In this document: piece by piece, positions 6,001 to 12,000 of the stretch
How positions within the stretch are numbered: the stretch's first letter is position 1
Layout of the letters: each line of letters starts with the position of its first letter
Source: Escherichia phage 933W
Length of the DNA stretch: 61,670 nucleotides
Sequence record: AF125520
Direction: 5' to 3' (one strand)
Made by a program: the position numbers

Positions 6001-9000
6001 AGGCATCTTTTCGTGTCACCCACATGCTGTACTGCACCTGGGCCATGTAAGCCGATTTTATGGCCTCGAAACCACCGAGCCGGAACTTCATGAAATCCCG
6101 GGAGGTAAACGGGCATTTCAGCTCAAGGCCGTTGCCGTCACTGCATAAACCATCGGGAGAGCAGGCGGTGCGCATACTTTCGTCGCGATAGATGATCGGG
6201 GATTCAGTAACATTCACGCCGGAAGTGAACTCAAAGAGGGTTCTGGCGTCGTTCTCGTACTGTTTTCCCCAGGCCAGAGCCTTAGCGTTAACTTCCGGAG
6301 CCACACCGGTGCAAACCTCAGCCAGCAGGGTGTGGAAGTAGGACATTTTCATGTCAGGCCACTTCTTTCCTGATCGGGGTTTTGCTATTACGTTGTGAAT
6401 TTCTGAAGCTGTGATGACGCCGAGCCGTAATTTGTGCCACGCATCATCTCCCTGTTCGACAGCTCTCACGTCGATCCCGGTACGCTGCAGGATAATGTCC
6501 GGTGTCATGCTGCCACCTTCTGTTCAGTGGCTTTTTGTTTCAGGAATCCAAGAGCTTTTACTGCTTCGGCCTGTGTCAGTTCTGACGATGCACGAATGTC
6601 GCGGCGAAATATCTGGGAACAGAGCGGCAATAAGTCGTCATCCCATGTTTTATCCAGGGCGATCAGCAGAGTGTTAATTTCCTGCATGGTTTCATCGTTA
6701 ACCGGAGTGATGTCGCGTTCCGGCTGACGTTCTGCAGTGTATGCGGTATTTTCGACAATGCGCTCGGCTTCATCCTTGTCATAGATACCAGCAAATCCGA
6801 AGGCGAGACGGGCACACTGAATCATGGCTTTATGACGTAACATCCGTTTGGGATGCGACTGCCACGGCCCCGTGATTTCTCTGCCTTCGCGGGTTTTGAA
6901 TGGTTCGCGGCGGCATTCATCCATCCACTCGGTAACGCAGATCGGATGATTACGGTCCTTGCGGTAAATCCGGCATGTGCAGGATTCATTGTCCTGCTCA
7001 AAGTCCATGCCATCAAACTGCTGGTTTTCGTTGATGATGCGGGACCAGCCATCAACGCCCACCACCGGAACGATGCCGTTCTGCTTATCAGGGAAGGCGT
7101 AAATTTCTTTCGTCCACGGATTAAGGCCGTACTGGTTGGCGACGATCAGCAATGCGATGAACTGCGCATCGCTGGCATCACCTTTAAATGCCGTCTGGCG
7201 AAGAGTGGTGATCAGTTCCTGTGGGTCGACAGAATCCATGCCGACACGTTCAGCCAGCTTCCCAGCCAGCGTTGCGAGTGCTGTACTCATCCGTTTTATA
7301 CCTCTGAATCAATATCAACCTGGTGGTGAGCAATGGTTTCAACCATGTACCGGATGTGTTCTGCCATGCGTTCCTGAAACTCAACATCGTCATCAAACGC
7401 ACGGGTAATGGCTTTTTTGCTGGCCCCGTGGCGTTGCAAATGATCGATGCATAGCGATTCAAACAGGTGCTGGGGCAGGCCTTTTTCCATGTCGTCTGCC
7501 AGTTCTGCCTCTTTCTCTTCACGGGCGATCTGCTGGTAGTGACGCGCCCAGCTCTGAGCCTCAAGACGATCCTGAATGTAATAAGCGTTCATGGCTGAAC
7601 TCCTGAAAATGGCTGTGAAAATATCGCCCGCGAAATGCCAGGCTGATTAGGAAAACAGGAAATGGGGTTAGTGAATGCTTTTGCTTGATCTCAGTTTCAG
7701 CATTAATATCCATTTTTTATAAGCGTCGACAGCTTCACGAAACATCTTTTCATCGCCAATAAAAGTGGCGATAGTGAATTTAGTCTGGATAGCCATAAGT
7801 GTTTGATCCATTCTTTGGGACTCCTGGCTGATTAGGTATGTCGATAAGGCGTTTCCATCCGTCACGTAATTTACGGGTGATTCGTTCAAGTAAAGATTCG
7901 GAAGGGCAGCCAGCAACAGGCCACCCTGCAATGGCATATTGCATGGTGTGCTCCTTATTTATACATAACGAAAAACGCCTCGAGTGAAGCGTTATTGGTA
8001 TGCGGTAAAGCCGCACTCAGGCGGCCTTGATAGTCATATCATCTGAATCAAATATTCCTGATGTATCGATATCGGTAATTCTTATTCCTTCGCTACCATC
8101 CATTGAAGGCCATCCTTCCTGACCATTTCCATCATTCCAGTCGAACTCACACACAACACCATATGCATTTAAGTCGCTTGAAATTGCTATAAGCAGAGCA
8201 TGTTGCGCCAGCATGATTAATACAGCATTTAATACAGAGCCGTGTTTATTGAGTCGGTATTCAGAGTCTGACCAGAAATTATTAATCTGGTGAAGTTTTT
8301 CCTCTGTCATTACGTCATGGTCGATTTCAATTTCTATTGATGCTTTCCAGTCGTAATCAATGATGTATTTTTTGATGTTTGACATCTGTTCATATCCTCA
8401 CAGATAAAAAATCGCCCTCACATTGGAGGGCAAAGAAGATTTCCAATAATCAGAACAAGTCGGCTCCTGTTTAGTTACGAGCGACATTGCTCCGTGTATT
8501 CACTCGTTGGAATGAATACACAGTGCTTATTCGTACTAATAAAATACCCAATTTTCTGTTTCTTGGTTGTGTCCAAAGTTATATTCAATATCTGGTGTTG
8601 ATGTATCAATATTCTTCATACCATCAACAAGAGTTGATACAACAGCCAAATCTTGTTTGATTCTCATTAAATGGTATTTCTTCCGGCGCAATAAACTTTC
8701 AATGGCAAGTTTCTTCGTTGGGAATGCAAAAGATCTTTCTGCATTTTTTGCTACTTTCTTAATTGCATATCTATTTCTCCTTTGTTTCCATTCCTGTAAC
8801 CACTGATTTGGTGCTGGTTTAAAATTAACAATCCAATGCGCAGGAACCAACCATGCATAATGCTCTGTCTGATGAAAAGCTATATATTGAAGTGCGAATA
8901 TTTTTATCCCATCTTCTTCAACTGTCGCCTGGAATCTCCAGAAAACAGGCATTCCATCATGTTCAGTTTCTGATTCAGGAAAAGGTACGCTCCATGATTT

Positions 9001-12000
9001 TGTCATATCTCACCTCAAATAAGTGGTTTGCTGCCTAATTTCATTTTCTGGCGACCAACACAAGTCACCTCGCCGTCAGTTGTTTTGATTTCCGGTAGCC
9101 TGCCGCGTAAATGGCTACGTTTGGAAGACATACACCAGTTTCTGGTTGCTTATGTCCAAACTCATTCGCGTACACAATGGCCGCTCGCTCCAGATTGCGT
9201 CTGTATTCTTTCTGTTGCCAGATCACGTCCTGTGCCATGAACTTAATTGGCTTAGCGTCTTCTATGCGCTCAGGCGTTTCGTGAGTACCTTTAGCCTGAA
9301 TCTGCGCTCTGCTTAGAGTAGGGCGGTGTAATACTTCTGAACTTATTGCTTCTTCGCGGGCCAGTACGCCGTTAGCTAATGCCTTTGCCTTTAAACGCTC
9401 ACGACGACGAGAACGTGAATTGCCTTTGAACTGAGTTCTGCGTGTCATATAGACCTCCTGATGAACTTTGGTGGTGTGGTAGGTGGGAGACCCATTTCGA
9501 CCTGTTTCGGCCTACTTCAATTCGGCAATAGTCCCGCAGGCCTCGCCGCTTTACGTGCGACATATTCCCGTCCATGAACCCTTCACCACACCCCAAAGTT
9601 CACTTTGGTTATTGCGCTTTGTCAGCGCCGTAGATTCATATTCGAATCGTTGTATATTCACCGCCCTGGTGAGTAATGCGTCCTGCTGACGACGATAATA
9701 ATGAACCAATAGTTCGACATTATCAAGAACTATTGGTACGAATTTTGGTGATTTATTAACTCTACGAAGTATGATTCTGATATATAAGGAAATTTATTTT
9801 TGAAAATGTGGCTGATGAAGGTTATGCGGCAGGGATCATAACTGCATGGTTTAGCGAGTTACATCAATAAATACAATTGGTTATGTTTTTTAGGTGGGCG
9901 AACGTGAGGCAAAGAAAACCCGGCGCTGAGGCCGGGCTAGATTTTAAAGTATTTATCTTTTAGAGATGTAGATGTAAAACTTTTCGCCTTTGAAAATTTT
10001 TTGTCATCAGAAGGGCTTATGAACTCATCTTTTTTGTAGGGAACCGCTAATGCTGCATCACGTCTGCGAGGCAGCTTGCTTACTTCCTCGCGCTTTTTCA
10101 TGATCAGTTATCCTTTAATAACCTATACAGTTTTGTAGGGGTACATCCTGAGGATATTGTTAAGTTCGTAGCACGCCTTTTCCGCCCATCATCGTATAAA
10201 CGAAAACCAGTAGTAGACGAATTTTCTGCGTCAAAAACTATAGACAGTATAGCGTCCCCAGACTTTTTTTGCCATTCGCATGTGCCGTTAGTTGGTTTCG
10301 TCATCTGTAGACGCCAGTCAAGAACGCCATCACTTATAGCTGAGAGATCGTTTAGTACATCTAGTACGGATTGATATCTTTCATTTGGATCTACATGAAT
10401 GCATTTGTTCACTATTGTTATTAATTTTTTATGTATATGGGGAGGATACTCTTTTAATGGATAGCAGCCATTAATTATCGACTCTCTGAGTTGTTCAATC
10501 GTGCTAAATGCAGATCTTTCTCTTTCAAAATTATCATGTCCAACACACATTCTATATATGGTTAATCCTGCCTGATATATGTCATATGTGAAATTATAAT
10601 CATTTGTTGATAAAGAAAAATATTCCGGTGGCACATGAAAATGATATCCAAACTCAGGCGCAGCTCTCGATTCCTCATTGACTAACTGAGATAATCCAAA
10701 GTCAGATAGCATGGCCTCATTTCTGTTTGATATCATAATGTTATTAGGTTTTATATCAAAATGCATAAGACCTTTTGAGTGTATATGATAAAGTCCACTT
10801 AAAAATTGAATGGAATACCGTATTATCTCCCTGCTTGTAAGATTATTTTTTTTCATTAATTGGTTTAGCGAACCATTATGATAAAATGGCATGGCTATAT
10901 AGATATTGCTCTCACATTGAGCAGCATACTGAACTTGCACAATATTTGGATGTGCATGTTTATAGAGAAGCCTTGCTTCATTAAAGTAGTCGTCGTGGTT
11001 AGTGTTTTCTTTTTTTTCTATTTCTTTAATCACCAAGTCATGAGCTAGGTGTCTGTCATGAGCCAGATATACTTTTGAAAAACAACCCTGTTCTTCTAGA
11101 TCACTAATCCATTCGAATTCTACATCAGCTCTTTTGTATGGAGTTAGCATCCCCTTACCTCCGCAGATAGTGCAGCCAAAACAGCTTCATTTGTTTCAGT
11201 TGTAAAACCAGAATTATCGATTCCATTTATATTGCGGTGTGACTTCAATATTTCTTTATACTCGATCTCTGTTAGGTTCAATGATGATTTCATGCCAGAT
11301 TTTCTAATAGTGTAATATTTTCTTACATCACTGCTTGAAAATGCTTCTTGAATAACAGCTTCTATATAAAGGCGGTCAATGCTAAGATTATCAGAGTTTG
11401 ATTCAGTAACGCGTATGGCAGCTAATTCAACATTATATAAATTAAGAATGTCGAGGATGTTATTTCTCACATACTTTAATTTTTCTGGTGTGTCTAAGGT
11501 CGAAGGTATTTTAATAACATCAACACATTTGAGTGCAGACTCATTAGTGCAATATACAACAAAAGATGTAACTTTGGGCGCCGCTCTAACACCTAGTATT
11601 CTCATTTTTTATATCCTATTTTAGAATCAGGCCGCATCTCTGCGACCATCCATCATCCAAACGTCTCTTCACTCATCCGAAGAAGCAGCAATCCGGGTTA
11701 GCACGCACAAGCTCAAGCGCATCAGTCAGCGAAAGTTCAGTACTGTACTGATGCCATTTCATATCCTTCCGCATCCAATAGATTTTCCATCTATCCAGAG
11801 AACGTATGTACTTGATTCTTGCTGATGGCAGGATGTTTGTTTCACCTGGATTGCCCTGCCACACGGGGCGCTGTTCGCCGATATCTATCGTTTGGTCATT
11901 GATGCTATAAACAATATCCAGTTCATTGCGGATATGTTCAGGCGGCCTTATGCTTTCAATGAATTGGTGAACTTCTTTTTTTACTGCTTGATATTCAAGG

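Follow-up and report, generated by a model that had tools for sequence, protein, structure and literature searches.

A functionally unassigned accessory gene behind N in the early-left operon of Escherichia phage 933W

The 61,670-nt sequence of Escherichia phage 933W (accession AF125520), referred to below as the window and used for all coordinates, was analysed around a 156-codon open reading frame (ORF) at 8536-9006 on the minus strand, which we call ORF156. ORF156 is a genuine gene, more than a chance ORF. It forms a self-contained accessory cassette and occupies the slot that comes first behind N, or behind a Nun-like gene, in lambdoid phages. It is a new addition, without an assigned function, to the accessory cassettes that lambdoid phages exchange in their early-left operon. 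Its product is a soluble, cytoplasmic single-domain protein with a strongly basic middle. The role that we tentatively favour (probability about 0.35) is that of an immediate-early factor directed against a host target, in counter-defence other than against classical restriction-modification (RM).

The features of the locus were located as follows.

8536-9006, minus strand: ORF156, with an ATG start, 156 amino acids.
9010-9016, minus strand: Shine-Dalgarno sequence of ORF156, GAGGTGA, read from the sequence, its GAGG core lying 6 nt ahead of the ATG.
9007-9064, minus strand: spacer of 58 nt between N and ORF156, assessed by terminator and promoter scan, fold z-score (0.37) and co-variation in RNA sequencing (RNA-seq).
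9065-9448, minus strand: antiterminator gene N of the H-19B/933W type, the upstream partner of ORF156 (Pfam N_peptide, 2.1e-15).
8017-8385, minus strand: ea10/DUF2528 gene, the first beyond the terminator (Pfam DUF2528, 2e-47).
8386-8526, no strand assigned: segment sharing about 99% identity with the lambda ral-ea10 intergenic (tL2) region, the conserved left flank of the variable slot (phage-record search, alignment with lambda and HK97).
8492-8523, minus strand: perfect 14-bp hairpin in the 3' untranslated region, without a U-run (fold and alignment).
8404-8433, minus strand: intrinsic terminator with its stem at 8412-8433 and its U-run at 8404-8411, the first after pL (terminator scan, fold, annotation in HK97 and phage 21).

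The early-left order of the 933W type is exo, bet, gam, kil/cIII, ea10, ORF156, N, a 54-codon ORF, stk, two further ORFs and cI. G+C content (GC) is 35.7% in ORF156 (26.8% at third codon positions), compared with 49.4% in the whole window; it drops to 35-38% over 8150-9050 and is about 50-55% in the recombination genes. The 691 bases around ORF156 are 100% identical in the Shiga toxin (Stx) phages Min27, EDL933-Stx, phi24B and many others. The initial annotation, made from the sequence, had placed here a 156-codon ORF in AT-rich DNA, between an N-like and an ea10-like gene, where lambda has ral and sieB, and ahead of a leftward terminator at 8404-8431. These points held: Pfam confirmed both flanking genes, the base composition is as described, the terminator has an 8-bp stem followed by TTTTTT and its coordinates were right within 2 nt, and the slot assignment agrees with the flanking homology described below.

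Codon-level comparison of nine homologues gave proportions of 0.67-0.93 for synonymous differences (pS), mostly saturated, and of 0.09-0.30 for nonsynonymous differences (pN). The ratio of nonsynonymous to synonymous rates (dN/dS) was 0.16-0.23 for the pairs in which it could be computed, and ORF156 is under clear purifying selection. A search of a 5.8-billion-protein database returned 33 matches, all from Enterobacterales where an organism name was given; the 21 full-length ones were aligned (55-99% identity), and the N-terminus was kept from residue 1 on in 22 homologues. A transcript, on whose presence the initial annotation had made its proposal depend, was abundant in published strand-specific RNA-seq of EDL933 and was detected in 11 of 11 conditions. 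Read mapping to ORF156 should be unambiguous there, because the gene is single-copy in the EDL933 record found. Its AT-richness and lack of a known family might suggest that ORF156 is non-functional and merely fills a mosaic joint, but this is very improbable. The dN/dS values together with the saturated synonymous sites effectively refute it, and the 87 profile matches and confident structure model described below, the strong ribosome-binding site and the abundant transcript all speak against it.

Judging from the flanking sequence, ORF156 occupies the slot of the ral/orf28/sieB cassette, because the sequence just 3' of it is about 99% identical to the lambda ral-ea10 spacer. The identity starts about 10 nt past the ORF156 stop codon and runs through the 14-bp hairpin and the terminator into the start of ea10, with a single base difference from lambda in the aligned stretch from hairpin to terminator. 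Over 141 nt it amounts to 98.6% with the lambda-type record Lambda_ev203, 99.3% with DE3 and 97.9% with phage 21. The 150 bases between ORF156 and ea10 are present in 323 phage records, including lambda-type phages, phage 21 and HK97. The content of the slot differs among these phages.

Lambda: sieB, orf28 and ral.
Phage 21: ral alone.
Stx2 phage 1717: an 86-codon ORF.
Salmonella phage 118970_sal4: sieB and a 121-codon ORF.
CurroJimenez (Bas106): ORF156 (100% identical) and three small ORFs.
HK97, H-19B and 933W: ORF156 alone.

Ral, SieB, the 1717 ORF and the sal4 ORF, the other occupants that were tested, are all unrelated to ORF156. The ORF of 86 residues in phage 1717, which its record likens to VT2-Sakai VT2-Sap20, and the 121-residue ORF with sieB in 118970_sal4 share the flanks and the cassette-like behaviour of ORF156, whereas their profiles show no similarity to it (hhalign probability 0.1 or less). 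Ral of lambda and phage 21 is likewise an early-left, non-essential accessory protein encoded between N and a tL2-type terminator upstream of ea10; it differs from ORF156 in sequence (BLASTP E 24) and length (66 compared with 156 residues). SieB of lambda belongs to the same variable slot beside N and also lacks similarity (BLASTP E 0.21). SieB has a hydrophobic segment, whereas ORF156 is soluble.

N and ORF156 were assigned to one transcription unit because the spacer between them carries no terminator and no significant structure; the scan of these 58 nt found neither a terminator-like nor a promoter-like site, and the fold was not significant (z 0.37). In the EDL933 RNA-seq, the ORF156 level tracks that of N across conditions, rises 11-fold with an SOS inducer in parallel to N, and exceeds 3000 reads per kilobase per million (RPKM) under an antibiotic known to worsen the disease caused by enterohaemorrhagic Escherichia coli. 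Past the terminator at 8404-8433 the RPKM falls fourfold, and this fall vanishes upon SOS induction. The ea10 value is 64 RPKM in lysogeny broth (LB) and 3757 post-induction, although ea10 paralogues in other EDL933 prophages may blur it. Such levels would be expected of a pL transcript that carries N and ORF156, ends at 8404-8433 and is lengthened when N begins to act. The transcript would end at this lambda-tL2-type terminator unless N antitermination carries RNA polymerase into ea10. As it is transcribed from pL with N, ahead of any terminator, ORF156 is probably immediate-early, a timing inferred from RNA-seq levels rather than from mapped 3' ends. This distinguishes it from lambda ral: with no tL1-type terminator preceding it, ORF156 would be made together with N, whereas ral is made only after antitermination.

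The terminator consists of an 8-bp stem (5 G-C pairs) at 8433-8412 on the minus strand, a 6-nt loop and TTTTTT. It was recovered in the minimum-free-energy fold of the 3' untranslated region, and a corresponding terminator is annotated in both HK97 and phage 21; the scan of the region gave 6 terminator-like sites, compared with 2.6 expected from shuffles. With a hairpin and U-run on the leftward strand and orthology to the lambda ral-ea10 intergenic region, it is of the tL2 type, tL2 being the name of that region in the lambda literature. The 14-bp hairpin at 8492-8523 is identical in lambda and HK97, and the 160 nt at 8386-8545 fold with a z-score of -4.75. An Rfam search of the region with E up to 1 gave one meaningless microRNA match only, so the 3' untranslated region is not a known small RNA. 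The hairpin at 8492-8523 could be a processing or pause site. A promoter-like site was also seen in antisense, at 8517-8545 on the plus strand; promoter-like sites are less frequent in this region than after shuffling.

The ORF156 protein has a mass of 18.6 kDa and an isoelectric point (pI) of 9.07, with 15 lysines and arginines in residues 76-130 and acidic termini. Its maximum Kyte-Doolittle hydropathy over 19 residues is 0.56, compared with 1.73 for SieB, and this analysis found no transmembrane-like segment. The initial annotation had found no recognisable family. This was borne out for Pfam, NCBIfam, PADLOC and the sequences of the PDB; PHROG 1636, a family of unknown function, nevertheless matched over the full length (E 2.7e-112, residues 1-156 on profile positions 1-156 of 156). 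HK97 gp45, a member of PHROG 1636 that is 99.4% identical to ORF156, and the orthologues in Stx phages are the same protein (99.4-100% identity), and HK97 has the same arrangement of N, gene and terminator. All of these have long carried the annotation 'hypothetical'. No functional study of ORF156 or its orthologues was found in the literature, where the only relevant papers were the EDL933 transcriptome and the BASEL collection.

The closest PADLOC match of ORF156, to Cas1_II, was weak and below significance (E 0.018). All 84 members of the family were then covered: Pfam found nothing and PADLOC found nothing at E 0.001 or better. A search of PDB sequences with ORF156 and with the 84-sequence profile gave noise only (E 0.1 or worse). 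Profile search of 1.84 billion representative proteins returned 87 matches, mostly stand-alone and 130-155 residues long, and no domain fusion was found by profile search of the 5.8-billion-protein database. ORF156 does not belong to the Ral, SieB or DNA-mimic families or to any PADLOC family.

Remote homology search and structure prediction, both proposed in the initial annotation, gave a confident model and fold relatives in phages, all of them uncharacterised, and no relative that bears a function. The AlphaFold model, built with the 84-sequence alignment, had a mean predicted local distance difference test (pLDDT) of 95.8 and a predicted template modelling score (pTM) of 0.83. Strands are predicted at 19-30, 33-46 and 50-55, helices at 57-61 and 66-74, a further strand at 83-86 and a 33-residue helix at 98-130. 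Foldseek against viral models (BFVD) gave 12 matches at E <0.001, every one labelled uncharacterised, in phages of Erwinia, Achromobacter, Delftia, Rhizobium, Sinorhizobium, Tenacibaculum and Cellulophaga; they include phiAxp-3 and RG-2014, and several of these phages, these two among them, are virulent. Small beta-barrel or AP2-like readers of nucleic acids (PWWP, MBT, chromo, Tudor-like, KOW, AP2) resemble the model weakly, and no Pfam or PDB sequence match was seen for any of the 84 members. The fold has no solved relative, which is mildly interesting and common among small phage proteins.

Across 67 distant members, R24, G33, E46, T47, K87, R92, A101, R108 and K109 are conserved together with hydrophobic core positions, as is a basic stripe on the long helix. 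Going by the alignment, these positions look like a binding surface and packing residues, with no obvious catalytic set. A GIY-YIG-like motif considered in 'GIKIFALQYIA' was rejected: the spacing does not fit, and G33 alone is conserved across the wider family.

Cassette behaviour was examined in 80 IMG/VR loci that encode a 100% identical ORF156 protein. Homology to the window breaks preferentially at 8536 (the stop codon), at 8404-8406 (just past the terminator) and at 9022-9068 (from the ribosome-binding site to the N stop codon). Upstream, 58 loci have the 933W-type N and 12 a gene for a Nun-like protein (phrog_5632), and eight different types of neighbour lie downstream. In these 12 loci, all E. 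coli prophages (for example 5516-5869 of locus L077), the Nun-like gene leads into ORF156 without an intervening terminator, and the same tL2-type terminator follows. Diverged homologues of ORF156 come after two other N-like alleles. ORF156 therefore behaves as a moron-like cassette, with breakpoints at gene borders, deviant composition and a slot that is filled otherwise in lambda, 21, 1717 and sal4.

Homologues were also found in other settings. In Pectobacterium and Brenneria prophages the gene lies immediately ahead of xis/int. In NX263-like siphoviruses (Salmonella phage NX263 and loci L090, L093, L094 and L098) a homologue that is 63-85% identical heads a short operon between structural genes, and a ParB-like protein (phrog_1033) always follows directly. 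In a Pantoea phage and a Vibrio phage the homologue is found among small early genes. The protein appears to act alone, because no partner gene is conserved.

ORF156 is carried by 593 of 5426 complete E. coli genomes (11%), with up to 4 copies per genome. The nucleotide identity of these copies is confined to 97.5-100%, and they extend well beyond Stx-producing E. coli, for example to a strain of sequence type 131 (ST131) and to the avian pathogenic strain APEC O1. A scan of genome contigs gave 7 loci only, all in Enterobacterales. Among phages, the gene is present in most 933W/H-19B-type Stx phages and in HK97, and in roughly one in four phage records with the flanking segment. It appears to be dispensable and patchy, because many sister phages are without it.

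Five distant members were read in their context (L099-L102 and L007, which is Pantoea phage LIET2), and in all five, taken as a raw count, a C5 DNA methyltransferase gene (PF00145) lies no more than about 2.2 kb away in the same operon, its place in the gene order varying. The eight early-left ORFs scanned between integrase and exo in 933W included no methyltransferase, and the link was not carried over to this phage.

For the function we favour, ORF156 would most likely bind a host factor, block it and so condition the cell just after infection or induction, because the gene is dispensable, patchy and expressed first. The target would probably be a host component or a general nucleic-acid structure, since the identical gene lies beside different N and Nun alleles, immunity regions and downstream genes, and relatives occur in phages of several bacterial phyla. 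Counter-defence would act through the conserved basic face (R24, E/Q46, T47, K87, R91/92, R108, K109). A generic or host target, a patchy gene, a place on the first transcript and a cytoplasmic basic protein all fit a binder of a host component. Several points weigh against this reading. It draws solely on gene position, timing and distribution, and no experiment, homologue or structural relative ties the family to any activity. The basic surface equally fits binding of nucleic acids for the phage's own purposes. CurroJimenez, with its identical copy, shows no protection from the RM systems tested (PMC11990801). Finally, in the 12 loci in which ORF156 follows a Nun-like gene, expression in some lysogens and a role in exclusion are possible.

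The main rival to counter-defence is a nucleic-acid-binding helper of the phage's own early programme, which would assist or tune N- or Nun-dependent transcription, recombination or replication through binding to RNA, DNA or RNA polymerase/Nus factors. ORF156 is co-transcribed with N; an N-type or Nun-type gene directly precedes it in 70 of the 78 loci with an identical copy, and the same holds for two diverged homologues. The basic centre of the protein, the conserved stripe along its long helix and its weak resemblance to beta-barrels agree with such a role. A sequence- or partner-specific function is nevertheless unlikely because a 100% identical gene stands beside different N alleles and Nun-like genes, and there are homologues with no N at all, beside xis/int in Pectobacterium and Brenneria, in the NX263-like ParB operon and in the Pantoea and Vibrio phages; on balance we regard the helper role as possible and rather doubtful. 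A Kil-like host-takeover or toxic early protein, blocking a housekeeping process of the host, would likewise be immediate-early, small, stand-alone and without a partner gene. However, there is no evidence that ORF156 is toxic; it is kept in 11% of complete E. coli genomes at up to 4 copies each and is dispensable, being absent from many sister phages, and takeover of this kind is unlikely.

The initial annotation had suggested anti-restriction or exclusion, a proposal that came from position only and found little to sustain it: similarity to Ral or SieB, a transmembrane segment and a PADLOC match are all lacking, and the protein is basic. A non-homologous analogue of Ral would account for the exact replacement of ral seen in phage 21 and lambda and for the lack of a ral or sieB homologue elsewhere in the window. 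ORF156 would be made even earlier than lambda ral, and the methyltransferase genes near all five distant relatives examined would suit such a role. On the other side, ORF156 has no sequence similarity to Ral (BLASTP E 24; no Pfam match), and its pI of 9.07 is unlike that of the acidic DNA mimics of the Ocr/ArdA type. The methyltransferase varies in position and spacing among the distant loci and was not found in the early-left operon of 933W. CurroJimenez (Bas106), which encodes a protein 100% identical to ORF156, has been described as highly sensitive to RM systems and without a predictable anti-restriction mechanism (PMC11990801). This partly contradicts a strong anti-restriction activity, while a mild Ral-like effect is still compatible with it. 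Restriction alleviation is disfavoured, with low odds.

Comparably poor odds were given to a prophage exclusion or abortive-infection protein that guards the lysogen as SieB does. The slot is that of sieB, the region of the known exclusion kinase Stk, which matches PADLOC models, is close by, and in 12 loci the gene comes after a Nun-like gene without an intervening terminator; the Nun protein of HK022 is made in lysogens. Against this, ORF156 has no membrane segment, no PADLOC model matches any family member, and the gene lies in the cI-repressed pL operon without a promoter-like site of its own and is induced 11-fold by the SOS inducer in parallel to N. Fold relatives in virulent phages also argue against a job confined to the lysogen. 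Exclusion of the membrane type is disfavoured because the protein is soluble, the gene is cI-repressed and relatives occur in virulent phages. In some Nun-type prophages ORF156 may have a cytoplasmic abortive function.

ORF156 is among the first products of prophage induction, including that of Stx prophages, and as a single-gene cassette in genetically tractable phages (HK97, CurroJimenez/Bas106) it is easy to test. If counter-defence or host conditioning is its role, it would represent a new family and explain one alternative allele of the classic ral/sieB locus; if it is silent, it would be one more ordinary hypothetical phage gene, and nothing yet marks it as out of the ordinary. A wider and speculative possibility, to which we give a rather small chance, is that the family, whose roughly 90 members come from phages and prophages of Gamma-, Beta- and Alphaproteobacteria and Bacteroidota, has a new fold and serves as an immediate-early inhibitor, directed at a conserved machine of the host or at some widespread immune system other than RM. 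In Stx phages, an inhibitor of this kind, made from the first transcript after derepression, might then influence whether induction reaches the release of phage and toxin.

Several other features were observed in the window. The stk kinase gene (10104-11150, minus strand) matched the PADLOC defence models mad6 (6.7e-50) and PD-T4-6 (1e-37). Just upstream of it, an overlapping AT-rich ORF of 153 codons (11144-11605, minus strand) had no Pfam or PADLOC family, and the next ORF (11673-12014, minus strand) encodes a DUF3024 protein. From their sequence and position, stk and these two ORFs look like a defence island between cI and pL that would be expressed in the lysogen. A G+C-rich hairpin at 9917-9938 scores as a terminator on both strands. 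Its counterpart in phi24B is annotated as terminator 'tRM' and lies downstream of the 54-codon ORF, the next gene after stk.

At the gathering score, Rfam identified the Lambda cIII thermoregulator (7899-7957), three tRNAs (21120-21368), STnc100 and the anti-sRNA (small RNA) AsxR side by side (22777-23036), the sok antitoxin RNA (58610-58784) and sRNA-Xcc1 (61136-61224).

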